Part shown: in pieces, positions 23,167-51,452 of the stretch
Layout: the number at the start of each line of letters is the position of its first letter
Numbering within the stretch: position 1 is the stretch's first letter
Source of the DNA: Deltaproteobacteria bacterium
GTDB taxonomy: Bacteria; Desulfobacterota; Binatia; UBA9968
Direction of reading: 5' to 3'
Length of the DNA: 64,000 nucleotides
Assembly: GCA_016193465.1 (NCBI GenBank)
Contig: JACPSE010000124.1
Location: forward strand, 290 to 64,289
Program-made: the position numbers and the translations under genes
The notes under the pieces: model-generated
The model's database searches: none
The model's input: only the letters and a program-made list of their open reading frames with translations
Told to the model about the DNA's origin: nothing

Positions 23167-24093
23167 CTACGACTCAACAATTCTAGCAAGTCTCTCTACG
23201 TTCCGTGCAACCTGCTCGTCGGACTGCATCCGCTCGAATAGCCGCGCGACCAAGGTTCCCACCGTTGCCATGTCCCTTCGTAGATAGACCGCCACCTCTC
23301 CAATTCCATAGCCGAGTCGCCGCACTAACACGTACGCTATCATAGTCCGAGCCTTTGATACACTCCAACTACGATCCGGGCTCCTGAGCGCCTCAACTCC
23401 AATCTCCAACCCTTGGGCTAACTCCTTTAAAACAGCAGCGACGGGTTTTCGGTTAGCTGCTTTTTGCCCTTTTCCCAGCTTTTCTTGAATCTTATCCCCA
23501 AATCCTTCGGCTCCTAAAAACCTCTGATCCTCCACCTCGTAATACTCTTCCTTATGTCCATCACCGAGACCGTCAAGAACGAATCTCCTGTAGGCCCCTT
23601 TTCCACCAAAGAGCCTGAGCACTTTTGTTGTATCAAGGACTTCGGTCGGCTTGCCTTCCAAATACACCCTATGTCCACCGTAGCCATACCGCTCAGGTCT
23701 CTTCACTATCCCGGCCCGTACAGGGTTAAGATGAATGTAACGAATGAGCTCCAGTAAGTACTCATCTTTCTCACAAATAATGGCTCTGTATCTCCCCTGA
23801 AAAACGTGTCCGACCTTATGATGCCGTAAGTTAAAATACTGGCTGTAGGATTGCTGAAGTCCCTGCATGAATTTAGCCAAGGGCTGATCGGAACTCTCCA
23901 GCAATAGATGGACATGATTGGGCATCAAACAGTAAGCGTAGACCGAATAATCATATTTTCTACGGTACTTGGCCAGTCGTTCTATGTAGGCCTGATAGTC
24001 CTGGTCGTTAAGGAAGGTTTTCTGTCTTTGGTTTCCTCGAACAATGACATGGTAGAGCAGAGCGGGAGCGAACAATCGTGGACGACGAGCCAC
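23167..24093 (-). mobile_element. IS200/IS605-like Y1 (HuH) transposase of the REP-associated tyrosine transposase type, with C-terminal DnaA-C-like HTH domain
   Basis: YHVIVRGN, CLMPNHVHLL HuH motif, catalytic Tyr region; C-terminal ARTMIAYVLVRRLGYGIGEVAVYL resembles DnaA C-terminal HTH; lower GC than surroundings. Confidence 0.75.
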
Positions 24094-24305
24094 GACCTAT
24101 CTCGATGACCCCTATCTCCTCCCCTATCTCCTCCCCCTTGCACGTTATAGTGGCGCGTTTTGATCGCCTGGCGTACTTCTACCCCAAAGCGGGGTAACCT
24201 TCATATTCCCTTCTGCCCTGACTATCGGCTGACTCTTTAGACGAATGGGAATCAGCAGAGTTCAACAGGCCAAATGGCTGCGGGGTGTTAAACGGAAGGA
24301 AAGAC

Positions 24306-25460
24306 TTAGCCCTTGCAGACGATCCACTCGCGCCGGAAGGAGTTCAGGCTCTCGCAGCCGTTCTTGCGGACGAGCAGTGTCTCGCCGAACTGAAGGCCCA
24401 TCTTCTCGTCGTGGGTGATGACGTTGGGCTGGATAACGATGACCATGTTTTCGCGGAAGATCACTTCGCCGCTTTCGTGGCGGGCGGTGGTGCGGCTCTG
24501 GATGATGGGAGGGTATTGGTTGGCGCCGTGAATCAGATCGTCGTAGATGCTGTAGCCGCGCCGGTGGATGACCTCCGCGGCCTCTTCGGCCTCCCGCGTG
24601 GATGTCCCGTCTTTGATCAGTCCCGCCAGGATCTCGAATGCCTCGACGGCGGCATCGTGGAGCTTGCGCCATTCTGGAGTCGGCCCTTCGCCTAACGAGT
24701 AGCTGCGGTGAATCTGCCCGCTGTAGCCCCAATAGGCGCCGCTGATTTCGGTAATCAGGCAGTCGCCGCGCTGGAGTCGCCTGTTCGATTGGAACTGCGC
24801 CGGCACGGAAAAATGGGGGTCGCGCATCGGCATGCTGGTCATAAAATGGATGCCCGCATAGCCCCCGGCCTTAAGGTAAATCGGCTCGATCAGAGCGGGT
24901 ATCTCATCTTCGCGCATTCCGACCTTGATCCCGTCAGCGAGCGCCTGCATGGACTGGTCGGTGAGCTTCGAGGCGAAGCGAATGCGCTCGATCTCTTCCT
25001 GACTCTTGATCGTCCTCAACATCCTGAACTTACCGCTGAGATCGATGAATTCCGCCTGGGGAAATCGCTCCCGCATCTTTTGATACTGCGCGTGAGGGAT
25101 GCCTCCGACAAGCCCGACCCGCCTGTTCGCCAGCCCGCGCTCCTGGAGCAGCGCCGCAACCCCGTTCCCAGTGTTGGCGCCAGCCCAACGAACATCCCGC
25201 ACGACCGAAAGGACGCGCGCCATCGGCACATGATTGTAGAGCTGCACAAGCACGACAGGTTCCCGCTCCTGCTGGAACAGCACGTATGCCTCGCGGCCTC
25301 CCGGCCAGTCTGTCAACCAATAGATCTCTGACGCAAACCTGCCGGCCCCGTAAACCAGCAGGGCATGGAGATTGTTTTGATCCAGTAATTGACACACCTC
25401 GGCGTGGCGATTAGCCATCTCGCCGTGAGAGAATCGGAGGAACTGGGAACTGTCACGCAT
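24306..25460 (-). CDS. M24 family metallopeptidase (Xaa-Pro aminopeptidase/creatinase-like)
   Basis: Creatinase_N-like N-terminus and pita-bread fold with metal-ligand His/Glu pattern; start chosen at MRDSS, downstream of the repeat-containing upstream part of the long ORF. Confidence 0.75.
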   Translation of the reverse strand: MRDSSQFLRFSHGEMANRHAEVCQLLDQNNLHALLVYGAGRFASEIYWLTDWPGGREAYVLFQQEREPVVLVQLYNHVPMARVLSVVRDVRWAGANTGNGVAALLQERGLANRRVGLVGGIPHAQYQKMRERFPQAEFIDLSGKFRMLRTIKSQEEIERIRFASKLTDQSMQALADGIKVGMREDEIPALIEPIYLKAGGYAGIHFMTSMPMRDPHFSVPAQFQSNRRLQRGDCLITEISGAYWGYSGQIHRSYSLGEGPTPEWRKLHDAAVEAFEILAGLIKDGTSTREAEEAAEVIHRRGYSIYDDLIHGANQYPPIIQSRTTARHESGEVIFRENMVIVIQPNVITHDEKMGLQFGETLLVRKNGCESLNSFRREWIVCKG

Positions 25461-25533
25461 TGAAATCTTCCTCGAGGTCGGATATCCAAAGGTGATAGCG
25501 GAGATTATCCGATGATGAGCGGAACTGTCAACG

Positions 25534-25620
25534 CAAGCCCTTCGGGATTTCAAATAGCATATTTCAAATCTCAGATCTGAAATATGAGATCTGCAATGTG
25601 AGATTCCGAGCGGAGCGAGG
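25534..25620. repeat. About 88-bp intergenic palindrome-containing element, copy A (second copy inverted at 42751..42840)
   Basis: caagcccttcgggat..ttcaaatagca..tcagatctgaaat..tgagattccgagcggagcgagg; near-identical to the reverse complement of 42751..42840. Confidence 0.7.
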
Positions 25621-25621
25621 A

Positions 25622-26848
25622 CTACCGACTGTGCTCTTTGCGGTGGGCGTATAGATCGGTGGCGGTCTTGAAGGCAATCAGAAGGAGCAGAGCCGCCGCA
25701 GGAGTTCCGAGGGCCATCGTGAGGAAGCCCCCAAAGATGATGGTGAGGTGCATCACGATGATCCGTTTGTAGGGCTCGCCCATCTGCGTCTTCATGTCCA
25801 TGCCGACAAACTCGCGCCGGCCGACGTAATTCGTGAAAAAGGAGACGCCGTGGCTGATAAAGAGGCCGGCCAGCGCGGGCCACAGAGGGAGGAAGAGATC
25901 GAGCAGCGCGACCCATGCCCCGGGCTCGGGGCCGGTAGCAGCGAGGCCGCGCACAAAGAAGTAATAAAGGAAAAGGAAGTGGCCCGCCATGAATCCGCCG
26001 AAGTGGCCGACGAAGAACGGGACCACGAAAATAGCAACCCATTTCGCGACAATCACCAGCTTGAGCACGTTCCAGAAACCGATCACCGCGCTCTCGGCCC
26101 AGAAGAGAACCATCACCTCACCGAGCTTCCAGTTCAGGAAAAGCACCCCTCCGAGAGGAATCAAGTTCGCGCCGATCAGGGCGAGAGTGGAAGGGGGGGT
26201 GAGCGAGGGAACGGAACCCTGCCGTGCTGGCTGAGCGGCCGCCCGAGCCCGGGATGGAGCCGGAGAGGGCTCCGGAGCCGGCGGTGCGGCCATTTCGTCT
26301 GCTACGAGTCGGGAGGTGCGCGGGGCCGCCTGCCGGATTACCGCGATCAGTCTTTCCGCGTCGGCCCGCTCCATCGCGTCGCCCAGGCCGCTGCTGCCGT
26401 TGCCGTAATCGAAGCGTATCCGCACGGCCTCTTTGGGATGGCGCTCGGCGCGCTCCAGCCGGAGGTTGCGGATCTTTGCGAGATCGTACTCGGTGCGGAG
26501 CCGCAGCGGGCCCAAGCGGGGCGTGTGTATCAGACGCTCGCCAACTACCTGCGCGGACTCGCCGTAAAAGAAAAACAGGACGGTTAGCGCCCCCAGAAAG
26601 AAGACGCCGGCCGACCAGCCCAGGACCCAGAACCCCTGAAACAGGACGACGGCGAGATCGAAAACGTTCCTGATCTCGTGACCGCGCATCGAGGCGATCT
26701 GGCTCCAGGCGATGGCGGCAAAGATCAGGAACGCGCCCCCGAAGAAGATCCCTACGGGCCACATGCGCCGGGCGGGGAGGGGAAGCGGGATGCCACCCTC
26801 CTCATCGTAGAGCAAAATTCTGAAGCGTTCCGGGCGGGCTTTGCGCAT
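25622..26848 (-). CDS. Hypothetical integral membrane protein (two membrane domains joined by Pro/Ala-rich linker)
   Basis: N-terminal 3 TM + soluble region, PAPEPSPAPS linker, C-terminal about 6-TM domain; no recognisable motif. Confidence 0.45.
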   Translation of the reverse strand: MRKARPERFRILLYDEEGGIPLPLPARRMWPVGIFFGGAFLIFAAIAWSQIASMRGHEIRNVFDLAVVLFQGFWVLGWSAGVFFLGALTVLFFFYGESAQVVGERLIHTPRLGPLRLRTEYDLAKIRNLRLERAERHPKEAVRIRFDYGNGSSGLGDAMERADAERLIAVIRQAAPRTSRLVADEMAAPPAPEPSPAPSRARAAAQPARQGSVPSLTPPSTLALIGANLIPLGGVLFLNWKLGEVMVLFWAESAVIGFWNVLKLVIVAKWVAIFVVPFFVGHFGGFMAGHFLFLYYFFVRGLAATGPEPGAWVALLDLFLPLWPALAGLFISHGVSFFTNYVGRREFVGMDMKTQMGEPYKRIIVMHLTIIFGGFLTMALGTPAAALLLLIAFKTATDLYAHRKEHSR

Positions 26849-26928
26849 CCGGGTAAAGTCGGTAGCTCACCGCTCCACCCTTGGAGAATCGGGAAAAGGG
26901 GGAGCTGTCTCGCATCTGTTAACTCGCG

Positions 26929-27930
26929 TTACGCTATTTTTAGCAGGCGTCTGGCGTTGCCTTCGAGGATCAAGTTCTTCTCTTTGTCGGGGCACTCCAG
27001 GGCCTCGATTTTCTCCACCGTCATCCAGTCGCCCAGCGTGTAGGGGTAGTCCGTGCCGACCAGGATGTGCTCGGCTCCGACGATGCGCTTGAGGTAGTCG
27101 AGGGTATCGACGCGGTAGACCATGCTGTCGAAATAGAGGTTCTTCAAGTACTTGCTCGGAGGAGAGGAGGCCTGGGCCGCCCTGGATCCGGAACGGACCG
27201 CATGACCCTGGTCCAGTCTTCCGAGCTGGTAGGGGAAAAATCCGCCGCCGTGCAGGACGCAGAGCTTCAAATTGGGAAATCTGTCGAACACCCCGCTGTA
27301 GCTCATGTACGCCAAGCTCAGGGTGCTGTCGGCCGGGTTGCCGCAAATCAAGCGCAGCCCGTAGCTTTCCATCCGCTCCGAGCCGGCGACGTCTTCGGGG
27401 TGCATCACGATCAGCACGTCCAGGGCTTCGGCCTTTTGCCAAAAGGGATCGAACTTCGGGCTGTTGTAGTATTCTCCGTTTACGTTCGAGCCGATGTAAC
27501 CGCCGCGAAAATTCAGCTCGCGAACCGCATATTCTAACGTCTCCGCCGCGCGCTGAGGGTCTTGCAGCGGCACCGCGGCCAGGGCAACGAAGCGGTCCGG
27601 ATGCTTTTGCACAAGCTCGTGCGACCCCTCATTATAAAGGCGGCACCACCTCTCTCCTCGCTCGCCGTCGAGGCGATAGCCGAGGCTTGCCGTCTGGGCG
27701 ATCAGAGCGCCGATCGCGATCTTTCCCTTCTCCATGATCTCGAATCTCCGCTCCACTTCCGAGAGATCCGGATTGAGAGTGAACTTGGGGCTACCTGAGA
27801 AGGAGAGGGCGGTCTCGCCGTTCTTAGCCTCGGTCACCTCCACGCCTAAAGCCTCGCCATGGCGCCTGGCTTCTTCCAGAAGGCTCGGGGGGATATAGTG
27901 GTGATGGATGTCAATAGCGCAGGTATTCAT
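26929..27930 (-). CDS. Amidohydrolase_2 family protein (ACMSD/LigW-like metal-dependent decarboxylase or hydrolase)
   Basis: IDIHHHYIP N-terminal His-His metal site, TIM-barrel amidohydrolase-2 pattern, C-terminal VGTDYPY. Confidence 0.7.
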   Translation of the reverse strand: MNTCAIDIHHHYIPPSLLEEARRHGEALGVEVTEAKNGETALSFSGSPKFTLNPDLSEVERRFEIMEKGKIAIGALIAQTASLGYRLDGERGERWCRLYNEGSHELVQKHPDRFVALAAVPLQDPQRAAETLEYAVRELNFRGGYIGSNVNGEYYNSPKFDPFWQKAEALDVLIVMHPEDVAGSERMESYGLRLICGNPADSTLSLAYMSYSGVFDRFPNLKLCVLHGGGFFPYQLGRLDQGHAVRSGSRAAQASSPPSKYLKNLYFDSMVYRVDTLDYLKRIVGAEHILVGTDYPYTLGDWMTVEKIEALECPDKEKNLILEGNARRLLKIA

Positions 27931-27946
27931 GGGTTGGTGGTCAGGG

Positions 27947-29437
27947 TCAAATCGCATCATCCGGCCGCTCGTACCTCGCTCTTCCTCTTCTTTCCTTTAT
28001 GGTCGGGTAGGCGACAATAACGATAGTAATGATGATGAGAATGATAACGCTCGGGAACAGGAGCCACTTGCTGCCGTAGGCAGCGGTCGATATCCATAGA
28101 TAGTTCTCGGCAATTTTTCCCAGGATAAGTCCCAAAATAAGAGGCGGCCTGGGCCAGCCGTAGAGAACCATAAAGTAGCCCGCCACCCCGAAAATCAGCG
28201 TGGCAATAAGGTCGGCCAAACTATTGTTGGCCGTGAAGGAGCCAATAAAGACAAAAAATAACAGAAAGGGGATTAAAAGAGATCCGCGAATAAAAGTGAG
28301 GGCAGCGAGCTGATTCAAAATCAAAAAACATAAACCGGCTACGATCAAATTGGCAATGATCAGCACCCAAACCATGGCGAAGGTTACGTCCAGGTGCTGC
28401 TTGAGCATCTCCGGACCCGGATTGAGTCCGACGATCAGAAGCGCGCCAAGTAAAAGCGCCATGCTTCCGCTGCCAGGGATGCCGAATGCTACAGTGGGAA
28501 TGAGGTCCCCGCCACGGGTAGAATTATTCGCGGCTCCCGGACCTAAAACTCCTTCCACGGCACCCTTCCCTGCGTCCTTCACTCCTTGCACTCCATGCGC
28601 GTATGCAATCCATTGGGCGACATTGGCGCCCAAAACCGGCAGCACGCCGAAATAGACCCCGATGAGACTACAGCGCACGGTAAGCCAGAAATGGCGAAAG
28701 GTATCCTTTACCCCTTCGATCACTCCAACTAGTTTCGTCTTGGGAACCTCAGAAATACTCGTCCCCCTAACTGCCAGGTCAACGATCTCAGGAATGGCAA
28801 AGAGCCCAACCACGACCGGAATGATGTCAAGGCGGTCCCAGAGGTAGAGCGAGCCGAAGGTATAGCGCAAAGAGCCGGTTTGCGGATCAACGCCGATTGC
28901 CGCAAGCATCAAACCCACTCCCCCTGCCAGAAGTCCTTTGAGCAGGGAGGCGCCGGCAAGGGTGCCTATGAAGGTAACTCCCATGATCGCAATGATGAAG
29001 AGCTCAGGCGAGCCGAAGAGAAGGACAAGCGGTCGCATAATCGGGATCGACAAGGCAAGCGATAGCGCGCCGACCATAGCCCCAAAAACCGAGCTCGTGA
29101 TCGCCGCCCCGAGGGCCCTTCCCGCCTCGCCCCTTTTCGACATCGGGTAGCCGTCGAGAATGAGAGCGGCGGAAGAACCCTCCCCGGGAATACCAAATAG
29201 AATGGATGTGATATCGCCGGTCGTCCCGGTTACGGCAAGCATACCCAGGAGAAAACAAAACGCCTCAACAGGCTGCTTGATCGTGTAGGAAAAGGGCAGC
29301 ATCAAGGCAAGCGTAGCGAGCCCTCCTAAGCCGGGAAGAAGACCAACGAAAAACCCGACCGCGATCCCGATCAGCAAATAGCCAAAGGCCGGCCAGGCCA
29401 GCACCTGCCAGAAGCCGCTAACGAACGCATCAATCAC
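27947..29437 (-). CDS. tctA: Tripartite tricarboxylate transporter large permease TctA
   Basis: About 500 aa, many TM helices, duplicated Gly-rich TctA motifs (GLLPGLGG, GFLVGLLPG-like). Confidence 0.85.
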   Translation of the reverse strand: MIDAFVSGFWQVLAWPAFGYLLIGIAVGFFVGLLPGLGGLATLALMLPFSYTIKQPVEAFCFLLGMLAVTGTTGDITSILFGIPGEGSSAALILDGYPMSKRGEAGRALGAAITSSVFGAMVGALSLALSIPIMRPLVLLFGSPELFIIAIMGVTFIGTLAGASLLKGLLAGGVGLMLAAIGVDPQTGSLRYTFGSLYLWDRLDIIPVVVGLFAIPEIVDLAVRGTSISEVPKTKLVGVIEGVKDTFRHFWLTVRCSLIGVYFGVLPVLGANVAQWIAYAHGVQGVKDAGKGAVEGVLGPGAANNSTRGGDLIPTVAFGIPGSGSMALLLGALLIVGLNPGPEMLKQHLDVTFAMVWVLIIANLIVAGLCFLILNQLAALTFIRGSLLIPFLLFFVFIGSFTANNSLADLIATLIFGVAGYFMVLYGWPRPPLILGLILGKIAENYLWISTAAYGSKWLLFPSVIILIIITIVIVAYPTIKERRGRARYERPDDAI

Positions 29438-29460
29438 GTTGTTTCTCCACCTCTCCAGCG

Positions 29461-30486
29461 CTACATTCCCAGCATTTTTCTCATCCGCTCGACGATCTCC
29501 GCAGGCTGAGAGCTAACCTCCTTGGCTAATGCTTCCAGCTCCTCGCCGAAGGTCGCGTCAATCTCAAGTTTCTTCTTTTGCGCGTCCGCCAGGACGGCCT
29601 CGTCTTTCATAGCCTTCGCAAAGGCCTCGCGGACAATGTTCACCCGGTCAGCAGGCGTGTTCGGGGAAAGAACGTAGGGACGACCGAAGACACCCGCGGC
29701 CAGGATCAGCGTTGCCAGGCGTCTGGCAGCTTCGGGCGACTTGTATTGATCCATCAGCTCATAGATGGTCGGGACATCCGGCAGCCTTGGATCCCGCTTT
29801 CTTCCTGTCTGCATCAGCACGCGGACAAAGCCCTTCTTACGCCAGGTCGTGAAGGGCTCGCGGGCGAAGAAGGCCGTAATCGTGAAGGCGCGGCAGACAA
29901 CCTCGCCTCGCTCGACCGCTAGGTCAATGTCCTGGCCCGCCTGGTAGCCTGCGACAATGTTGAAATTCGTCCCGATGACTTGGTCCAGCAGCTTGGGAAC
30001 ATAGTACGCCGTTGAGGTCGTTCCAGTCGCGCCGCACTTCGGAGGCTCGGAAGCCTTCACGACGTCAGCCATGGACCTGTAGGGGCTATCGGCACGCATG
30101 TAGAGGAGGTGGTTCGAGGTTACCGGGCTTCCAATCCAGGCAAATTTGCTCCAATCGAAATTTACCTCTTTGCGGCCGATAACCTGATCGAAATAGAGGG
30201 CAGGGTAAATGGCCCCGATGGTCAGCCCATCAGGCTTGGCGACATTATAGACATGGTTTGCCGCAATCAGGGCGGCGGCGCCCGGCATGTTTTGGACAAT
30301 GATATTGGGGTTGCCCGGGATATTTTTGGGCAGGTGTTGCGCCAGGAGGCGCGCATACAGATCGTAAACATCACCCGCTTTGGTGCCCACAACGATCGTC
30401 ATGGTCTTGCCCTGATAGAAAGGGGTCTGCGCCTCCAGTCCAGAAGCCCAGAAGAACAACAAAAGAGCAAATGCAGTTTTCTTCAT
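29461..30486 (-). CDS. TTT-family periplasmic substrate-binding protein (TctC/Bug-like), copy 1
   Basis: Signal peptide; IVVGTKAGDVYDLYARLLAQHL...VQNMPGAAALIAANHVY..AKPDG pattern characteristic of Bug/TctC receptors. Confidence 0.65.
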   Translation of the reverse strand: MKKTAFALLLFFWASGLEAQTPFYQGKTMTIVVGTKAGDVYDLYARLLAQHLPKNIPGNPNIIVQNMPGAAALIAANHVYNVAKPDGLTIGAIYPALYFDQVIGRKEVNFDWSKFAWIGSPVTSNHLLYMRADSPYRSMADVVKASEPPKCGATGTTSTAYYVPKLLDQVIGTNFNIVAGYQAGQDIDLAVERGEVVCRAFTITAFFAREPFTTWRKKGFVRVLMQTGRKRDPRLPDVPTIYELMDQYKSPEAARRLATLILAAGVFGRPYVLSPNTPADRVNIVREAFAKAMKDEAVLADAQKKKLEIDATFGEELEALAKEVSSQPAEIVERMRKMLGM

Positions 30487-30531
30487 AATAAACTCCTTTC
30501 CGTTAGAAGAGAGCTGTTGAAAGATAGTCAA

Positions 30532-31623
30532 TTATTGGACAAACAATTTTTTGATCTGCTCGATCACCTCGGGTGGTTGGTCCATGCCCTCTTTAGCCAT
30601 GGTCTGCAGCTCTTCACCTTTCGTCGGGCTCACTTCTACTCGTCCCTTTTTCGCCTCGGCTACAAGGTCGGGGTCTTTCGTTGCCTTTTCGTAGGCTTCC
30701 CGCAGGATCTTAACCCGGTCCGGCGGCGTGCCCGGAGGGGCCAGAAGTGAGCGGGCCCATTCGCCGCCTAACAACATGGCTTGAGCGACACGACGGCTGG
30801 TGGCGGCGGTCTTGTATTCGTTCATGAGTTCGAAAATGGTGGGGGCGTCAGGGACGCGGCGATTCCTCTTGCGCCCACTCTGGGCGAGGAATCGAACAAA
30901 GCCTTTTTTTTGCCAGCTCAAAAAAGGCTCCCGGGTAAAGTAAGTGGAGACTGTCAATCCCATGCATATGACCTCGCCCCTTTCCATTGCCAGGGCGATC
31001 TCGCTGCTGCCTGGATAGCCCACTACGTTATCTATCTTTGCCCCTATGGTCTCCTCCAAGATTCTAGACATGACGTAGTCCGAGCTGCCAACGCCTGTCG
31101 AGCCGCACTTGGGCGGCTCCTTGGACTTGACGACATCTCCAATGGACTTATAGGGCGCATCGGCTCGCATGAATATCATCATATCGTCATTTTCCAATGA
31201 GCCGATCCAGTGGAACTTGAGAAGATCAAACTTGACCTCTTTATGCCCCGCAAGCTGGCTCAAGTAAACGTTGTTATGGGGCGTCAGGAGAGTTAAGCCA
31301 TCGGGCGTGGCCACTCCGTAGACGTAGTTGGCCGCGATCACGGATCCGGCGCCTGGCATGTTCTGGACAATCATCTCCGGGTTGCCGGGGATATATTTTC
31401 CCAAGTGGCGCGAGACAATCCGGGCTGCCCGGTCATAACCTCCGCCGGCGCTGAGGCCAACAACGATCCGAATTGTCTTGCCCTTATAGAAGGGTTCTTG
31501 GGCGCAGGCCGAAGTGACGGTTGAAAGGTTAAAATAAAGGCTTAAAGGGATGAAGAGATAAAGGGTTAAAGGGATTAAACCCTTGAACCCTGAGACCCTT
31601 AAACGCTTAAACTTACGCAGCAT
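30532..31623 (-). CDS. TTT-family periplasmic substrate-binding protein (TctC/Bug-like), copy 2; N-terminal signal region encoded by repeat sequence
   Basis: IRIVVGLSAGGGYDRAARIVSRHL...QNMPGAGSVIAANYVY; paralog of copy 1; first about 30 codons overlap the aagggtt repeat. Confidence 0.65.
   Translation of the reverse strand: MLRKFKRLRVSGFKGLIPLTLYLFIPLSLYFNLSTVTSACAQEPFYKGKTIRIVVGLSAGGGYDRAARIVSRHLGKYIPGNPEMIVQNMPGAGSVIAANYVYGVATPDGLTLLTPHNNVYLSQLAGHKEVKFDLLKFHWIGSLENDDMMIFMRADAPYKSIGDVVKSKEPPKCGSTGVGSSDYVMSRILEETIGAKIDNVVGYPGSSEIALAMERGEVICMGLTVSTYFTREPFLSWQKKGFVRFLAQSGRKRNRRVPDAPTIFELMNEYKTAATSRRVAQAMLLGGEWARSLLAPPGTPPDRVKILREAYEKATKDPDLVAEAKKGRVEVSPTKGEELQTMAKEGMDQPPEVIEQIKKLFVQ
31523..31615. 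repeat. aagggtt-type short repeat cluster, copy 1 (related copy at 41515..41565)
   Basis: ttaaagggatgaagagataaagggttaaagggattaaacccttgaaccctgagacccttaaacgcttaaac with internal inverted symmetry. Confidence 0.55.
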
Positions 31624-31646
31624 AAAGCCCTCCAGTCATTGAGTTA

Positions 31647-32135
31647 TTATAAACCTAACCAAACGAATAGTTGCCCTTCCGGAAAGGGGAGGTGGAGCAG
31701 CCAATCAAAAAGTCCCCAGAACAGGAACCACGCGGCCCCGGTAAGCAGAAGAGATAATCCCCATCTCTCACCCGATTGAACCTTCAAATAGAGGAAGACA
31801 AACGCCGGGATGGTAATCTTGAAACCGAGGAGCCAGATGCCGGCAAAAAGCCCGAAAATCCAGGAGAAGATGTTAATTGCCCGGCGCCGGGCGAGAGCAG
31901 GGTCGGTACCCCGCGTGAACTGGAAATCAACCGGGGCGGCGGATGGCTGGCTTGATGGCTTCTTCTTCCCCTTCAACTCCCAGATCATGTGCACGACCGA
32001 CAGCGCCAGCATCGGGATGCCAACCGCCCACGGGTAGAGGCGCGCCTGCAGACGCCAGTCTATGGCTTCGTACACGAAGACCAAGAAGAAAATGATAATC
32101 AGCAGATCAAAAAGAAGCTGGGGCCTAAGCTTCAT
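31647..32135 (-). CDS. tctB: Tripartite tricarboxylate transporter small subunit TctB
   Basis: About 160 aa, four TM helices, position at head of tctB-tctC-tctC-tctA array. Confidence 0.6.
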   Translation of the reverse strand: MKLRPQLLFDLLIIIFFLVFVYEAIDWRLQARLYPWAVGIPMLALSVVHMIWELKGKKKPSSQPSAAPVDFQFTRGTDPALARRRAINIFSWIFGLFAGIWLLGFKITIPAFVFLYLKVQSGERWGLSLLLTGAAWFLFWGLFDWLLHLPFPEGQLFVWLGL

Positions 32136-32276
32136 GGCTTCCTTCCTCATACCGGATGTTATCTCCGCTTATCACAGGGCGGTTTAGAAGGTCAATGTCT
32201 GCTTTTAGGCCCTTTCATTTTTTTGCAGACATGGTAAGACAGGGTTAAAATAATACCCATTAAGGAAGGAGTTTCC

Positions 32277-33095
32277 ATGTCAGACTATAAAACGATTTTG
32301 GTGGAGAAAAAAGAGGGCGTTGCCACTATTACCTTCAACCGCCCAAAAGTTAAAAATTGCATGAATCCTCAGATGCACCTGGATATGGTAGACGCCCTTA
32401 CGGAATTGGAGGACGACGATGAGGTGAGGGTGTTGGTGCTAACCGGAGCAGGGGACAGCTTCTGCGCCGGGCAGGATCTCAAGGAGTATTTCTACGAGAT
32501 CGACGACAACCCCAAGGCGCGAAGAAGGGCGCGGGAGGCGGCGACCACGTGGCGCAGCCATAAACTCAGGCTTTTTCCCAAGCCGACCCTCGGGGCAGTG
32601 AACGGCTGGTGTTTTGGCGGCGCCTTTTCCATCGTCGCCGCCTGCGATATTGTGATCGCCGCGGATGAGGCGGTCTTTGGCTTGAGCGAGGTCAATTTTG
32701 GCAAGTTCCCCGGCGGGATGGTCACCAAGGATGTCAATGATATGTTCCATCCCCGCGACGCCCTCTTCTATATTTTCACCGGGCGCAAATTCGACGGCAA
32801 ACAGGCAGCGGCGATGAAATTTGTTAATTATTCAGTTCCGAGAGAAAAGCTGATGGGTGAGGTTTACGCTCTGGCGGACGAACTCAAGGCCAAACATCCG
32901 GAGGTCTTGCGTATTGCCAAGGAGGCGTACAAATACGGGAAACGGTTTAACTACGAAGAGGCGTACGCGTTTTCGACTGCCAAGACAAGAGAGCTAGACT
33001 ATGTGGCAGGGAAAACATGGAAGCAGGGATTCACCCAGTTTAAAAAAAGGGAGATGAAGCCAGGGCTGGGAACGTACAAGTGGGATAAAGAATAA
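32277..33095 (+). CDS. Crotonase-fold enoyl-CoA hydratase/lyase, hydroxycinnamoyl-CoA hydratase-lyase (HCHL)-like, copy 1
   Basis: ITFNRPKVKNCMNP, LTGAGDSFCAGQDLKEYF, GWCFGGAFSIVAACD; C-terminal ..KQGFTQF..KPGLGTYK resembles HCHL tail. Confidence 0.75.
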   Translation: MSDYKTILVEKKEGVATITFNRPKVKNCMNPQMHLDMVDALTELEDDDEVRVLVLTGAGDSFCAGQDLKEYFYEIDDNPKARRRAREAATTWRSHKLRLFPKPTLGAVNGWCFGGAFSIVAACDIVIAADEAVFGLSEVNFGKFPGGMVTKDVNDMFHPRDALFYIFTGRKFDGKQAAAMKFVNYSVPREKLMGEVYALADELKAKHPEVLRIAKEAYKYGKRFNYEEAYAFSTAKTRELDYVAGKTWKQGFTQFKKREMKPGLGTYKWDKE

Positions 33096-33112
33096 TTAGG
33101 GAGGTAAAGAAA

Positions 33113-33940
33113 ATGACAAAATCTTATCAAACGGTGAAGGTCGAAAAGGACAATGGGATCACGTGGGTGATCCTGAATCGTCCGGAAAAACGCAACGCCA
33201 TGAGCCCGCAGCTCCATTACGATATGCTGGATGCGATTAACGAGCTGGAAACCGACAATGAGACCAGGGTATTGGTCCTGACCGGGGCCGGCGAGAGCTG
33301 GTGCGCGGGGCAGGACCTGAAGGAATATTTTCGCGCGCTGGACAACAATCCGGCCGAGCGGCGTCGCGCCAATTGGGCCTCGCAGGAGTGGCGCTGGCGG
33401 CGGCTGTTCACCTTTCCCAAGCCGACCATCGCCATGGTCAACGGTTACTGCTTCGGCGGGGCTTTTACCCCGCTCATTGCCTGCGATTTTGCGATCGCTG
33501 CGGAGGATGCGGTTTTCGGACTGAGCGAGATCAACTGGGGAATCTTTCCGGGCGGGCTGGTCAGCCGCGTGTTGGCCGATGCCCTGTGCTATCGGGACGC
33601 CGTGTACTACATCATGACGGGCGATCCCTTTGACGGAAAGAAAGCGGCAGAGATGAAGCTGGTGAACTTCGCCGTTCCGCGCGCGCAGTTGCGGGAAGAG
33701 ACAATCAAATTGGCAAAAAAACTTATGGAGAAGAACCCCCATGCCCTGCGCGCGGCGAAGGAGGTCTACAAGCTATGCCGGACCATGGACTATTCGCAGG
33801 CTGAAGACTATATGGGGGCAAAGAGCACGGCATTGCGGGCGACGGATCCGGAGAAAGGTCGTGAGGAGGGAACCAAACAATTTCTCGATGACAAGACCTA
33901 TCGTCCTGGTTTCGGAGCCTATGGGCGGAAAAAGGGATAA
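33113..33940 (+). CDS. Crotonase-fold enoyl-CoA hydratase/lyase, HCHL-like, copy 2
   Basis: ILNRPEKRNAMSPQL, LTGAGESWCAGQDLKEYF, SEINWGIFPGG, KQFLDDKTYRPGFGAY - closely patterned on 4-hydroxycinnamoyl-CoA hydratase/lyase. Confidence 0.8.
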   Translation: MTKSYQTVKVEKDNGITWVILNRPEKRNAMSPQLHYDMLDAINELETDNETRVLVLTGAGESWCAGQDLKEYFRALDNNPAERRRANWASQEWRWRRLFTFPKPTIAMVNGYCFGGAFTPLIACDFAIAAEDAVFGLSEINWGIFPGGLVSRVLADALCYRDAVYYIMTGDPFDGKKAAEMKLVNFAVPRAQLREETIKLAKKLMEKNPHALRAAKEVYKLCRTMDYSQAEDYMGAKSTALRATDPEKGREEGTKQFLDDKTYRPGFGAYGRKKG

Positions 33941-33966
33941 GCTTCTCAAAACTCAAAATTGATTGG

Positions 33967-34968
33967 ATGGACACTTCTACTCGTAGACTTATATCGGCCA
34001 TCCTGTTTTTAGTACTGGCCCTTATTGCCGGGCTTTTGGGCTATCAAATCATTGAAGGATGGAACTTCTCCGATTCTCTCTACATGACTGTCATCACATT
34101 GGCCACGGTTGGGTACGGAGAGACCAACCCGCTGACGCCGACCGGCAGGGTTTTTACAATGTTTCTGATCATGGTTGGGGTGGGGGCTTTGACCTATGGA
34201 CTCACCGCAGCCACAGCCTTTGTGGTTGAGGGCACTCTTACGGATATGATCGGGAGGAGAAGAATGGAGGCAGAGATCAATAAGCTTAAAGACCACATCA
34301 TCCTTTGCGGGATCGGGGAAATCGGAAGGCATATCGTGCGGGAGTTTCTCAAGACCCAGATCCCGTTTATCGTAATCGAGAAGGATGAGGAGAGGCTCAA
34401 GCAGATGGGGAAAATCGGTGGCTTTCTCTACATCGAAGGGGATGCCACTGACGATCATGTCCTGCTGCGGGCTCGAATTGGTGAGGCTAGGGGACTGGTA
34501 ACTGCGCTACCGCAGGACCGGGACAACGTCTTTGTCATCCTCACGGCCCGCGGACTGAATCCGAACCTGAGGATTGTCTCAAGGGTTGTTGAGGAGGAGT
34601 CGCGGGTCAAGCTGGTCAAAGCAGGAGCTGATGATACGGTATCGACGAACTTCATCGGCGGATTGAGGATGGCCTCGGTTATGATCCGTCCTACCGTGGT
34701 CTCTTTCCTGGACAAGATGCTGCGGGCGGGTGGCGATGATGTGAGGGTTGCAGAGGCGAAGGTTCCTCCAGACTCAGCTATCGTGGGGCGCAGCCTCGGG
34801 GAAGCGGGGATTTACAAGGAGACCGGTCTTATCGTGATTGGCATTGCCCGGGGTGAGTCCTATGAGTTGAATCCCGGGCCGGATACCCGGCTCCTGGGAG
34901 GGGACGGGCTTATTGTCTGCTGCTCGGTGGAGCAGTTGAAAAAACTAAACGACTTGGTCGCTGCCTAG
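33967..34968 (+). CDS. Two-TM potassium channel with RCK (TrkA-N/TrkA-C) domains, MthK-like
   Basis: Pore helix + selectivity filter TVGYGE; Rossmann GxGxxG (ILCGIGEIG) and C-terminal TrkA-C. Confidence 0.8.
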   Translation: MDTSTRRLISAILFLVLALIAGLLGYQIIEGWNFSDSLYMTVITLATVGYGETNPLTPTGRVFTMFLIMVGVGALTYGLTAATAFVVEGTLTDMIGRRRMEAEINKLKDHIILCGIGEIGRHIVREFLKTQIPFIVIEKDEERLKQMGKIGGFLYIEGDATDDHVLLRARIGEARGLVTALPQDRDNVFVILTARGLNPNLRIVSRVVEEESRVKLVKAGADDTVSTNFIGGLRMASVMIRPTVVSFLDKMLRAGGDDVRVAEAKVPPDSAIVGRSLGEAGIYKETGLIVIGIARGESYELNPGPDTRLLGGDGLIVCCSVEQLKKLNDLVAA

Positions 34969-35741
34969 TCATTCACGCGCTTGCAGGCGGAGATTAACGA
35001 AGCAAATATTTTTCTCTGAAGAACGTCCCTCTCAGTCAAGAACTCAGGGTGCCACTGGACTCCCAGTACGAAAAAGTGTCTAGTGCTCTCAATGCCCTCA
35101 ATGACGCCATCTTCAGCCGTTGCATTGACGATCAACCCCCTCCCCAGTTTTTTTACCGCCTGATGATGGGTGGTGTTGACCTCGAGTTTTTCCTGTTTCA
35201 CGATCAGCTTGAGTTTCGTCCCGTCGTGGACTGTTATTTTATGGCCGCCTATCTCTTTGAGTTTTCCCTGCTGATGCTGGCCCGCCTCGGGAAGCTGGCT
35301 GGCAATATCCTGGTACAGGGAGCCCCCGAGGGCGACGTTGATCGCCTGCGCGCCGCCGCACACGCCTAGTAGCGGAAGGTCCCTTTCCAGGGCCAAGGAT
35401 ATCAGTCCCAGCTCGAATTGGGTCCGTTCTTCCTTGATCTCTCCCAGTTTGTTTGTCGCTTCCTCACCGTAGAGTCTGGGGTGGATGTCGAAGTTTCCTC
35501 CGCTGACTAAGATGCCATCCAGGCGGTCTGCCATTTGCCGCAGAAGGGTTGAGGAAGAACTGATAGGTAGAATCAGAGGAACACCTCCAGCCTCCTGAAT
35601 CGCGCGTGCGTAGCGCTGCTGCAAAACAATCAACAGCTTCCCTCCGTTACCAGCGGCGCGTGACGGGCTTCTGCCGGTATCCGGGGTGATTCCGATCAGG
35701 GGCGCCTCAGTCCGAGGAGGTTTTTTCGTTCCTGGTATCAT
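34965..35741 (-). CDS. Class I glutamine amidotransferase / peptidase C26 (gamma-glutamyl-GABA hydrolase PuuD-like)
   Basis: LLGVCGGAQAINVALGGSLYQDI catalytic Cys, HH...W(H)PE motif; start uncertain (MIPG chosen; ORF extends to 35834). Confidence 0.65.
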   Translation of the reverse strand: MIPGTKKPPRTEAPLIGITPDTGRSPSRAAGNGGKLLIVLQQRYARAIQEAGGVPLILPISSSSTLLRQMADRLDGILVSGGNFDIHPRLYGEEATNKLGEIKEERTQFELGLISLALERDLPLLGVCGGAQAINVALGGSLYQDIASQLPEAGQHQQGKLKEIGGHKITVHDGTKLKLIVKQEKLEVNTTHHQAVKKLGRGLIVNATAEDGVIEGIESTRHFFVLGVQWHPEFLTERDVLQRKIFASLISACKRVND

Positions 35742-37767
35742 AGATCTTCCGGTAGATGCGGTGGTTGCGCAGCACGAGCTTAACATAGAGGCGGGTCTCT
35801 CTGTAGGGGATCCTCTCGATGAACTCGTCTTCATCCTCCGCCGTGATCTGTTTTTCCCAGCGGGCTACAGCGTTCTCTCCCGCATTGTAGGCGGCGATCG
35901 CTTTGACAAGGTTATTCGAGTAACGCTGGAGCAGCTCTCTCAAGTAATGAGTGCCAAGCGTCAGGTTGATGTCCGGCTCAAAAAGCTCTTCACGCTGCGG
36001 TGGAGGGACTCCCAATTGTTCGGCAGCACGAGCTGCAGTGGAAGGGAGAAGCTGCATCAGGCCAAAGGCTGAGGCCGGGGAGAGCGCCTTGGGATCGAAA
36101 ATGCTCTCCTGCCGAATCAAGGCCACTACGAGATAGGGATCGAGGGCCCTAACTTCGGTGATCTTCTGGATCGTCTCCCAAAAGGCTAAGGGATAACGGT
36201 AGCGGTTCAGCTCGTCTGAGGTAAGGGGGATTTGGTTCGCCAGGGCTACGCTGCGGGCGTAGGCGCTATTGCGGGCATATTCGCGCATCAGCGTGAGTTT
36301 TAACGGGAGGTCGTCATCGCCCGAGTTTCGGACCTCGTCCAGCTCGGCCACAGCCAACTGGTTCAGGGAGATCTCAGCCAGTTCCCGGGCACGGGAAAGG
36401 TGAAAAGAACGGTCTGGGCTAAGGGGGGGGAGCGCTTCAGGGAAGAGGATCGAGCTTGCCCTCTTTTTCTCCTCGACAGCAGCGCCCATTGTTTCCAGCC
36501 ATTTTGCGGCCGGGCCCTTATAGTAGCTGTCCTCCCGTGCGTTCAGGATCTGGGAAAAAAGCTGTTTCGCTTCCTCAGAAAGGCCCATCTTTTGGGCGCT
36601 ACGGGCCTGCCAGTAAAGAGCTGCGGCTTTGTAACGCCCGTCAACTTTATCTGCAACAAGGCGATTGAGCGCGCTGTAGGCACGCTTGTAATCGGCCTGG
36701 AGGTAGTGGAGCCAGGCGAGTCTCCACTGCGCCTCCTCGCGCATTGGGCTGTCCGGGAACCTCTTGGAAAAGTCTCGATAGAGGCGCAGGGCATCCCATT
36801 GTCTGCCCAGCGATTCGTAGATGCGCGCCGAGGCGAGATGGGCAAGATCGTTGAAGAAACTTTGCGGATAACGATCGCGCAGTTGCTTAAAGTGGTCAAG
36901 CGCTTTTACGTTTTCATCTCGGTTCCAGTAGCTCTCGGCCAGCCGGTAGAGAGCGGCCGGGGCTTGAGAACTGGAGGAATGTGCTTTGAAGATTTCGGAC
37001 AGCACAGGTATGGCCTCTTCCCTTTTGCGGGCTGACCGGTAGACGTTGGCGAGCCTCATGAGGAAATATGGCCGAAGAGGACCTTTGGGAACTTGATCCA
37101 GAATTTGGCGGTAACCCTTTTCCGCCTCGGCGTATTCCCGTTCCCGCGATAAGAGTTCTGCCTCCTCGGCGAGGGCATCGACCCTACCCAGGCGGAAGAG
37201 TTCGGGGTGCTTCCCCCTCAACCTCTTGATCTCGTTTCTCGCCCTCGCGGCCCACGGCGAAAGCGGCGAGGTGCGCCGCAGCTCCTGATATCGGGAGTAT
37301 GCCTGCTTCAACTCCCCGAGGGCCTCATGAGTCCGGGCAGTGAGAAACAGGGTCTCTTCAGCAATCTCCTTCTTTAGGCTGCGATTTGTGAGCGCGCGCA
37401 GCTCTCCCAAGGCCTGGTCGTTTTTATTCTCCGCCAGAGAGATTTTGGCTAGGTGGAGCTCCGCGTGGGCAACCCAGGTGCTTAGGGGAAATTGCTGCTT
37501 GAGTTTGGCGAAATGGGCGCGGCCACTTTCCAACTCGCCGCGCGAGACGGCGATGGCGCCGGAGAAATAGAGGCTATAATCCTCCAGGAGAAAATTGCTG
37601 TCCAGGGTCTTCTGGAAGAGATCCTCAGCCTGCGCGAGATTTCCTTCTGCGAATAAGGCATAGGCCTTGGAAAAGAGCTCCCGGGATTCCTGTTCTTGCG
37701 AATAAACTGAAGGGGGACCGGCGGCGAAGAATAAACACAGAAGAATAACGGCGAGGTTTTTCATCTC
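35707..37767 (-). CDS. Soluble lytic murein transglycosylase (Slt70-like: TPR/superhelical domain + lysozyme-like domain)
   Basis: Signal peptide, long helical repeat region, C-terminal ESIFDPKALSPASAFGLMQLLPSTA...AYNAGENAV transglycosylase SLT motifs. Confidence 0.8.
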   Translation of the reverse strand, partial: EMKNLAVILLCLFFAAGPPSVYSQEQESRELFSKAYALFAEGNLAQAEDLFQKTLDSNFLLEDYSLYFSGAIAVSRGELESGRAHFAKLKQQFPLSTWVAHAELHLAKISLAENKNDQALGELRALTNRSLKKEIAEETLFLTARTHEALGELKQAYSRYQELRRTSPLSPWAARARNEIKRLRGKHPELFRLGRVDALAEEAELLSREREYAEAEKGYRQILDQVPKGPLRPYFLMRLANVYRSARKREEAIPVLSEIFKAHSSSSQAPAALYRLAESYWNRDENVKALDHFKQLRDRYPQSFFNDLAHLASARIYESLGRQWDALRLYRDFSKRFPDSPMREEAQWRLAWLHYLQADYKRAYSALNRLVADKVDGRYKAAALYWQARSAQKMGLSEEAKQLFSQILNAREDSYYKGPAAKWLETMGAAVEEKKRASSILFPEALPPLSPDRSFHLSRARELAEISLNQLAVAELDEVRNSGDDDLPLKLTLMREYARNSAYARSVALANQIPLTSDELNRYRYPLAFWETIQKITEVRALDPYLVVALIRQESIFDPKALSPASAFGLMQLLPSTAARAAEQLGVPPPQREELFEPDINLTLGTHYLRELLQRYSNNLVKAIAAYNAGENAVARWEKQITAEDEDEFIERIPYRETRLYVKLVLRNHRIYRKIYDTRNEKTSSD

Positions 37768-50800: not shown

Positions 50801-51452
50801 TGTCCTGGAAATGGCCCAGGGCTTGGGTGAGGATATGGTGGGGCGCTGCGTGGATAAAAATCTCCACCCCTCGGAGTGGGACCTCAGCGGGCTGCGGGAG
50901 GCGCTCTATCACCAATTTAATTTTCGTCTGGATCTGAAGCCAGAGGAACAGGAAGATTTGAGCGTCGAGAAGCTGCAGGAAATTGTTGTGGAGAAGCTAA
51001 GCCAGACCTACGAGAAGAAGGAAGAGCGGTTCAGCTCTCCTATGCTCCGGCAGTTGGAGAAGATTATCATGCTCCAGACGATCGACAGCTTGTGGAAGGA
51101 CCACCTCCTTAATATGGACCATCTGAAAGAGGGGGTTGGGTTGCGTGGTTATGGCCAGAAGAACCCTTTGCAGGAGTATCAGAAGGAAGGGTTCGAGATG
51201 TTTGAGGAGATGGTCCGCCAGATTCAAGTGGATGTCGTGCAGAAGCTCTTTACCATTGAAATGGCGCGGGAAGGCGCTTTAGAAGAGATGGAAGTTCAGC
51301 GTCGCCCGCAGAGAATTGTTTTGAGCCATGGCGGCGACGGGGAAGAGCCGGCGCGGGTGACCCCGATCAAGCGGCAGGGCAGTAAGGTTGGCAGGAACCA
51401 GCCTTGTCCCTGCGGCAGCGGCAAGAAGTACAAACGTTGTTGCGGCAAATGA
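47856..51452 (+). CDS. secA: Preprotein translocase ATPase SecA with about 270-aa expanded variable (VAR) subdomain
   Basis: Walker [42 protein letters not shown]-terminal zinc site [14 protein letters not shown]; 1198 aa with E/R/A-rich insertion about 49600..50430. Confidence 0.95.

Follow-up and report, generated by a model that had tools for sequence, protein, structure and literature searches.

A transporter-amidohydrolase operon and a divergent pair of HCHL-like crotonase genes in an uncultured member of the Binatia

The stretch of DNA analysed here, called the window below, is 64,000 nucleotides long and belongs to an uncultured bacterium of the Binatia (deposited as Deltaproteobacteria bacterium; GTDB lineage Bacteria; Desulfobacterota; Binatia; UBA9968; assembly GCA_016193465.1, contig JACPSE010000124.1, positions 290 to 64,289 of the forward strand). 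Near its middle, the genes of a tripartite tricarboxylate transporter (TTT) and of an amidohydrolase form an operon on the minus strand, and two tandem crotonase genes, whose products resemble hydroxycinnamoyl-CoA hydratase-lyase (HCHL), lie divergently on the plus strand. We read this as a composite locus of two modules, the TTT/amidohydrolase operon and the crotonase pair, and put the probability of that reading at about one half. The initial annotation had joined all these genes into one cluster for the uptake and breakdown of lignin-derived phenylpropanoid acids, but as a single functional unit this cluster does not hold, since the transporter block and the crotonases are conserved independently of each other in related genomes. 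The orthologues of the two crotonases in sister genomes stand at the head of separate CoA-dependent clusters for the shortening of side chains. A domain scan of the window, covering every open reading frame (ORF) of at least 180 aa judged to be a plausible gene and skipping those nested in or overlapping a longer ORF with a domain, found no CoA ligase, as had been claimed before, and likewise no CoA-transferase, acyl-CoA dehydrogenase (ACAD) or aldehyde dehydrogenase domain. As the partners of the crotonases are absent in the window, we infer that the locus cannot run the pathway alone.

Pfam searches recovered the whole set of genes named in the initial annotation, tctB-tctC-tctC-tctA-amidohydrolase_2 on the minus strand and the crotonase pair on the plus strand, and bore out their positions. 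The minus-strand operon begins with tctB for the small membrane subunit of the TTT (31647-32150, 167 aa; PF07331, E 2e-9, 38 bits), continues with two genes for periplasmic solute-binding proteins, tctC paralog a (30532-31623, an ORF of 363 aa; PF03401, E 4e-24, 86 bits) and tctC paralog b (29461-30531; PF03401, E 2e-15, 58 bits), and then with tctA for the large membrane subunit (27947-29437, 496 aa; PF01970, E 5e-116, 388 bits). The start of paralog b is probably at 30486, which gives a protein of 341 aa, because of the hydrophobic N-terminus MKKTAF... found there. The two TctC proteins are 48% identical and are paralogs, as was proposed earlier. All three TTT components (TctA, TctB and TctC) are co-encoded with every Pfam score above the gathering cut-off, and the first module has both the family membership and the gene order of a TTT importer. 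The amidohydrolase_2 gene comes next (26929-27960; PF04909, E 4e-39); its start is probably at 27930, for a protein of 333 aa, since the orthologues are 331-333 aa long. The operon extends further than the coordinates given before, as two more minus-strand genes are found downstream of the amidohydrolase: one for a DUF6498 membrane protein (25622-26848; PF20108, E 1e-53), which is a variable insert, and one for an M24-fold, creatinase/prolidase-like protein (24306-25460; PF00557 and PF01321), the usual last gene of the conserved block.

Close relatives of the window proteins come nearly all from metagenome-assembled genomes (MAGs) of Candidatus Binatia/Binatota or of "Deltaproteobacteria", and loci from these genomes, labelled L001 and so on below, made it possible to follow the two modules separately. 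The conserved unit of the first module is tctB-tctC(n)-tctA-amidohydrolase_2, usually with the M24-fold gene after it, and it is present in at least nine Binatia loci. The tctA gene, 84-92% identical, is followed by the amidohydrolase gene in L010-L015 and L032-L034, and tctB orthologues of 52-63% identity hold the same position in L001, L014 and L033. The number of tctC copies is two in the window and 2 to 7 in L010-L015 and L032-L034; at least 6-8 stand in tandem before tctA in L001/L032 and L034, where an Amidohydro_3 gene, an occasional insertion, lies among or after them. The M24-fold gene follows the amidohydrolase in five of six informative loci (L011-L015), as in the window, and the DUF6498 gene occurs in L010 and L015, whereas L012-L014 lack it. 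The DUF6498 protein is a multi-pass protein with an N-terminal extension of about 210 aa that has a Pro/Ala-rich linker. Outside the Binatia, distant homologues of the amidohydrolase (30-40% identity) occur in alphaproteobacterial MAGs, mostly Xanthobacteraceae, and have a TctC-like neighbour in 7 of 15 loci. Because of this conserved synteny of the transporter block, the amidohydrolase would be functionally tied to TTT uptake and not to the crotonases.

TTT systems classically carry di- and tricarboxylates. The window operon is like the known TctABC systems and their binding proteins (TphC for terephthalate, AdpC for adipate, the Bug proteins) in that all three components are encoded in one operon, and the additional TctC paralog is what is seen in Bug-rich genomes, but it differs in its order, tctB-tctC-tctC-tctA, and in the catabolic genes fused to it. 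Both TctC proteins are only remotely similar to solved TctC/Bug binding proteins (best 7NDR, E about 7e-13; about 1e-13 at best), and the ligand class can for that reason not be transferred to them.

The best solved relatives of the amidohydrolase are human ACMSD, matched over the full length with E 1e-51, and bacterial ACMSD (1e-37). Other decarboxylases are much more distant (LigW 5e-29, gamma-resorcylate decarboxylase 1e-25), the hydratase LigJ reaches only 1e-14, and no model was matched in an NCBIfam search with the protein. Like ACMSD it is an Amidohydro_2 TIM barrel, and the metal ligands His6, His8, His174 and Asp291 as well as the catalytic His224 (human numbering) are kept both in the window protein and in 119-120 of 120 orthologues, in all of which Arg235 of ACMSD is invariant. 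The substrate-binding Arg47 of ACMSD is on the other hand absent, with Phe in its place in the window protein and Phe, Tyr or His among the orthologues, and Trp191 is replaced by Leu. Since the metal and catalytic residues are kept, Arg47 and Trp191 are replaced and LigW is more distant, the protein is, as judged from these residues and scores, an ACMSD-like metalloenzyme with a substrate other than that of ACMSD, and not a LigW orthologue. It probably acts as a non-oxidative decarboxylase. The earlier assignment to the LigW/ACMSD family is thus right about the decarboxylase branch, but within that branch the protein sides with ACMSD and not with LigW, and it does so without Arg47. The setting of the gene differs too. 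It has no neighbours from a kynurenine or nitrobenzoate pathway, and in contrast to both ACMSD and the LigW decarboxylases it is fixed downstream of a TTT transporter. Its dN/dS is 0.12.

The M24-fold protein at the end of the block has an altered metal site. The five ligands of the dinuclear metal centre in the Pyrococcus furiosus prolidase (1PV9), which we take to be Asp209, Asp220, His284, Glu313 and Glu327, read Glu/Gln/Gln/Gln/Glu in the window protein as well as in the orthologues of L011-L014. The protein is therefore probably not a standard metallopeptidase, going by these positions, and may be creatinase-like.

The second module consists of crotonase 1 (32277-33095, plus strand, 272 aa; ECH_1, E 7e-46) and crotonase 2 (33113-33940, plus strand, 275 aa; ECH_1, E 3e-53). 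The genes are separated by 17 bp, each has a strong Shine-Dalgarno ribosome-binding site, and their products are 51% identical. Both had been described as HCHL-like, and they do group with HCHL and not with MenB or the fatty-acid enoyl-CoA hydratases (ECH). The NCBIfam equivalog model for p-hydroxycinnamoyl-CoA hydratase/lyase, NF006588, gives 319.3 bits for crotonase 1 and 414.8 bits for crotonase 2 at a cut-off of 276, as compared to about 160 bits for EchA19, the next-best crotonase model, and 118-125 bits for the MenB model TIGR01929, which has a cut-off of 343. In the PDB, HCHL is the best match to both proteins (crotonase 1, E 2e-68; crotonase 2, E 5e-101), while MenB and ECH give values of about 1e-31 to 1e-34. 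With scores for the HCHL model and structures that far exceed these, an origin among MenB or fatty-acid ECH fails as an alternative. Crotonase 2 is 58% identical to the HCHL of Pseudomonas fluorescens, and crotonase 1 43-45%. A metagenome scan with peptides of crotonase 1 gave only one irrelevant match of 30%.

The two scores above the equivalog cut-off, and the 58% identity of crotonase 2, speak for an integrated cluster for lignin-derived hydroxycinnamates. The TTT would then import ferulate or p-coumarate, the activation to CoA esters would be encoded elsewhere, the two HCHLs would release vanillin or 4-hydroxybenzaldehyde together with acetyl-CoA, and the amidohydrolase would be a LigW-like decarboxylase of aromatic acids. 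We regard this explanation as doubtful, and the residues of the crotonases point both ways. Six proven or context-supported HCHLs, used as a reference set, have 97 invariant positions in common; crotonase 2 keeps 87 of these, which also favours a hydroxycinnamoyl substrate, and has only three systematically changed, and crotonase 1 keeps 66. The crotonase fold, the length of about 275 aa, the motif GLSE(I/V)N(W/F)G with the single catalytic Glu143 and the motif DLKEYF with Tyr75 are shared with HCHL/Ech from P. fluorescens AN103 (2J5I/2VSS) and FerB from Sphingobium SYK-6 (7XWC). So is, in crotonase 2, the C-terminal KQFLDDK..PG tail; the tail quoted as HCHL-like in the initial annotation, KQFLDDKTYRPGFGAY, was located in this protein. 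Met70 of HCHL is however replaced by Gln, and Tyr239 is replaced as well, as it also is in FerB.

Glu143 is found in both window crotonases and in all 237 of 237 homologues tabulated. Tyr75, which in HCHL presumably hydrogen-bonds the 4-hydroxyl of the substrate, is present in both window crotonases and in all six reference HCHLs, and together with Glu143 it counts in favour of the hydroxycinnamates. The same position is however Tyr in only 64 of 119 crotonase 2 orthologues and Phe in the other 55, so that about half of the clade does without it, which speaks against them. Tyr239, which we take to be a second phenolate ligand in the Pseudomonas enzyme, corresponds to Gly in crotonase 2 and, depending on the alignment, to Thr or Phe in crotonase 1, and it is never Tyr in the 119 crotonase 2 orthologues. 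Its loss was considered as evidence against hydroxycinnamoyl-CoA substrates and then dropped, for the proven FerB has Ile there. Val occupies the position in an HCHL homologue on the Agrobacterium pAt plasmid, whose neighbours include a CoA ligase and an aldehyde dehydrogenase. With Ile in the one and Val in the other, Tyr239 marks only the HCHL type of Pseudomonas, Ralstonia and Rhizobium, and its absence does not disqualify a hydroxycinnamate cluster. A further case is PDB 6P5U, which was deposited as an "enoyl-CoA hydratase"; it is an HCHL-family protein, 64% identical to the P. fluorescens HCHL, and has Ala at position 239, and it falls inside the clade of proven HCHLs.

Both window crotonases are placed outside the clade of proven HCHLs in a neighbour-joining tree (100 bootstraps; 91% support for that clade), which is another point against hydroxycinnamates. 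The crotonase 2 clade, itself supported by 100%, branches next to it as its sister with a support of only 47%, and crotonase 1 is found in a separate and poorly resolved HCHL-like group. The crotonase 2 clade comprises 119 sequence clusters with an identity of at least 82%. For crotonase 2 dN/dS is 0.06; for crotonase 1 dN is 0.08-0.11 and dS is saturated. On these estimates both genes are under purifying selection.

The neighbourhoods of the crotonases in related genomes separate the two modules. An orthologue of crotonase 1 (87%) in L001 is divergent from tctB, as in the window; the genes after it encode two ACADs, a thiolase of the SCP2 type, a DUF35 protein, a CoA ligase of the AMP-forming kind and a family-III CoA-transferase. 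L014 and L033 have ACADs divergent from tctB and no crotonase. The orthologue in L002 (80%) adjoins an arylmalonate-decarboxylase-like gene and a 718-aa ADP-forming acyl-CoA synthetase, the architecture that FerA of Sphingobium is reported to have, and this synthetase is a point in favour of hydroxycinnamates. Orthologues of crotonase 2, 84-91% identical, have an ACAD gene after them in five of five loci examined (L006, L007, L008, L035 and L036), and two CoA_transf_3 genes come after the orthologue in L006, L007 and L035. These clusters usually hold several solute-binding proteins, which in L007 and L035 include TctC-like ones. An orthologue of the K+ channel gene of the window (81-83%) is situated at the far end of the crotonase 2 cluster in L035 and L036, and in L008 the genes for the C26 peptidase and the transglycosylase are found downstream as well, as they are in the window. 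As to crotonase-rich loci, L004 (305-14654) has five crotonase genes, four of them HCHL-like, within 20 kb, together with two ADP-forming acyl-CoA synthetases (one cut by the end of the locus), arylmalonate-decarboxylase-like genes and a PrpD-like gene.

The tandem of two crotonase genes was seen in no other locus examined, including the 228 bp upstream of the L035 orthologue, and the idea of a heteromeric crotonase pair was rejected for this reason. In the window the crotonase genes directly adjoin each other and the K+ channel gene, which follows immediately after crotonase 2; in L035 and L036 it is displaced downstream by about 9 and about 5 kb, respectively. Seen against its relatives, the window gives the impression of two clusters that have collapsed, in which crotonase 1 seems to have lost a tail of ACAD, thiolase and ligase genes, and crotonase 2 a tail of ACAD, CoA-transferase and binding-protein genes. 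It could even be that the adjacency is nothing but a by-product of deletions, and that the crotonases are stranded remnants of two decayed clusters with no role in any pathway now. The missing partners of every sister locus, the abutting K+ channel gene and the tandem seen in no other locus all speak for that, but both ORFs are intact, with strong ribosome-binding sites and an operon-like spacing of 17 bp, and the low dN/dS of crotonase 2 and low dN of crotonase 1 speak for maintained function, although such values average over the whole divergence and are compatible with a recent loss. Paralogous ACAD and CoA-transferase genes may also be situated elsewhere in the genome. We find it very improbable that the pair is a mere relic.

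The HCHL loci of Ralstonia, Rhizobium and Agrobacterium all carry a MarR regulator, a CoA ligase and an aldehyde dehydrogenase, none of which is found among the scanned ORFs of the window. The Binatia loci examined have neither aldehyde dehydrogenase nor MarR, and some have a CoA ligase or synthetase. Hence the pathway partners that were to be expected near the crotonases are lacking, the ligase and aldehyde dehydrogenase in the window and the aldehyde dehydrogenase in the Binatia loci, and the contrast to context-supported HCHL loci, three of three of which have all the partners, weighs against the hydroxycinnamate explanation. The closest parallel is the Agrobacterium pAt cluster (L039), where an HCHL homologue without Tyr239 is paired with an ACAD, just as the Binatia crotonases are. 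By analogy, such a pairing suggests entry from a saturated (dihydro) acid, and the arrangement of ACAD, HCHL, ligase and aldehyde dehydrogenase on pAt is in favour of hydroxycinnamates. The AMP-forming ligase, aldehyde dehydrogenase, MarR and MFS transporter of that cluster have, however, no counterpart in the window, and in the Binatia relatives the partners differ from those of HCHL, being ACADs and family-III CoA-transferases. A Novosphingobium RL4 locus was rejected as a FerA-FerB reference, because the genes around it code for unrelated proteins (PKD-domain, SDR and DUF2891), and a literature search on Binatia and hydroxycinnamoyl compounds gave nothing usable. The amidohydrolase, finally, supports the hydroxycinnamate cluster by its place in the ACMSD/LigW branch, but it opposes it in being tied to the transporter and the M24 gene and in resembling ACMSD far more than LigW.

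The nature of the partners leads to another explanation. NCBIfam scores for the partner ACADs, CoA-transferases, thiolase and ligases, as well as for the M24 protein, are far below the cut-offs and are to be read at family level only. At that level the best models for the ACAD are acryloyl-CoA reductase or non-decarboxylating glutaryl-CoA dehydrogenase, and for the CoA-transferases succinyl-CoA:mesaconate and succinate-glutarate CoA-transferases, which are dicarboxylate types and as such a point against hydroxycinnamates. In L036 (3854-8592) the crotonase 2 orthologue and its ACAD come immediately after a citrate-synthase-like and a PrpD-like gene. Owing to these short-chain and dicarboxylate-like partners and to the genes in L036, a non-aromatic substrate is possible: a CoA-dependent route for carboxylates, possibly C4-C6 dicarboxylates, in which a family-III CoA-transferase and a short-chain-type ACAD would precede an HCHL-like hydration, which may or may not lead on to a retro-aldol cleavage into an acyl-CoA and a small aldehyde such as glyoxylate or malonate semialdehyde. 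It would agree with the pairing of crotonase 2 with an ACAD and two CoA-transferases, with the MmgE/PrpD genes in L002 and L004, with the classical di- and tricarboxylate substrates of the TTT, with the dispensability of both phenolate-binding tyrosines in the crotonase 2 clade and with the lack of an aldehyde dehydrogenase nearby. The family-level scores of the partners and the small number of changed HCHL-invariant positions in crotonase 2 are against it, and to our knowledge no HCHL-family enzyme acts on an aliphatic substrate. We think that such a route is unlikely.

A more specific version can be formulated for the clusters of crotonase 2 and a short-chain-type ACAD in Binatia, which usually have two family-III CoA-transferases and carboxylate-binding proteins and never an aldehyde dehydrogenase. 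They might constitute a CoA-dependent pathway that is as yet undescribed, with a hydratase-lyase of the HCHL type whose enoyl-CoA substrate would be non-phenolic and possibly dicarboxylic; a thioester of the mesaconyl or fumaryl type, for instance, would give glyoxylate and an acyl-CoA. The operon of TTT, ACMSD-like and M24 genes would then be a second, separate and uncharacterised module. We offer this as a speculation of low probability.

For the composite locus of two modules, which we prefer, the following mechanism can be proposed. Two periplasmic binding proteins would deliver a carboxylate to TctAB for import, and in the cytoplasm the ACMSD-like enzyme, with a divalent metal, would work on what is imported and most likely decarboxylate it non-oxidatively, to be followed by the M24-fold protein with its altered metal site. 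Each crotonase would hydrate a beta-substituted acryloyl-CoA by means of Glu143 and then probably cleave the 3-hydroxyacyl-CoA in a retro-aldol reaction to an aldehyde and acetyl-CoA, as HCHL does, in concert with ACAD and CoA-activating enzymes that would be encoded elsewhere. It is not unreasonable that the TctC-like binding proteins in the crotonase 2 clusters of L007 and L035 are a functional bridge to TctAB. An arylpropanoid acid is a possible substrate of the crotonases, one candidate among several, and to name lignin-derived phenylpropanoids in particular would be a guess.

Several points weigh against this reading, besides the Phe that replaces Tyr75 in nearly half of the crotonase 2 orthologues. 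The lyase step, as distinct from hydration, is deduced from homology only, and the lack of an aldehyde dehydrogenase near any Binatia copy is odd for a lyase that would produce an aldehyde. Similarity alone does not separate decarboxylase from hydratase or hydrolase chemistry in the amidohydrolase. The link between the modules is the synteny in fairly close relatives (L001, L014 and L033), which could reflect inherited gene order and not a shared function. Moreover, the analysis covered a single contig of the MAG, and the partner genes missing from it may lie elsewhere in the genome.

In the divergent intergenic region between tctB and crotonase 1 (32151-32276) each strand has hexamers that resemble promoter elements, and at 32196-32231 there is a perfect inverted repeat of 7 bp, TGTCTGC-N22-GCAGACA. 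The repeat occurs once in the window, where 0.01 occurrences would be expected by chance, and was not found in the related loci compared. No riboswitch or other RNA family was detected by an Rfam scan of 24000-36000.

The genes around the locus are housekeeping or unrelated genes, among them those for FtsK, RNase J, SecA, ArgJ and GatA/B as well as for a K+ channel, a lytic transglycosylase and a C26 peptidase. Just beyond the end of the conserved block, at 23167-24093 on the minus strand, there is a 308-aa protein with an IS200-like Y1 transposase domain and a weak, sub-threshold match to the C-terminal helix-turn-helix domain of DnaA, which may be a REP-associated or domesticated transposase. 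The SecA gene (47856-51452, plus strand) is unusually long with 1198 aa, and its SecA_DEAD match covers residues 6-461 against a profile of 290 positions, which implies a large insertion.

The genes of the window are members of known families in an uncultured lineage, and their family-level names are already assigned by the NCBI pipeline. This catabolic locus is an ordinary one and only partly interpretable, and with family-level assignments and an incomplete pathway the window adds little by itself. It does illustrate that passing an equivalog model for HCHL does not establish catabolism of ferulate if neither the ligase nor the aldehyde dehydrogenase partner is there. Binatia are globally distributed and uncultured, and descriptions so far portray them chiefly as methylotrophs and degraders of alkanes. 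In one survey of Binatota genomes there is no mention of aromatic compounds, feruloyl, TctC or enoyl-CoA hydratase. The clusters of crotonase, ACAD and CoA-transferase that are spread across the Binatia are more interesting than the window itself, and once the substrates of the conserved, TTT-linked and CoA-dependent clusters are identified, they would widen the known carbon use of this group.

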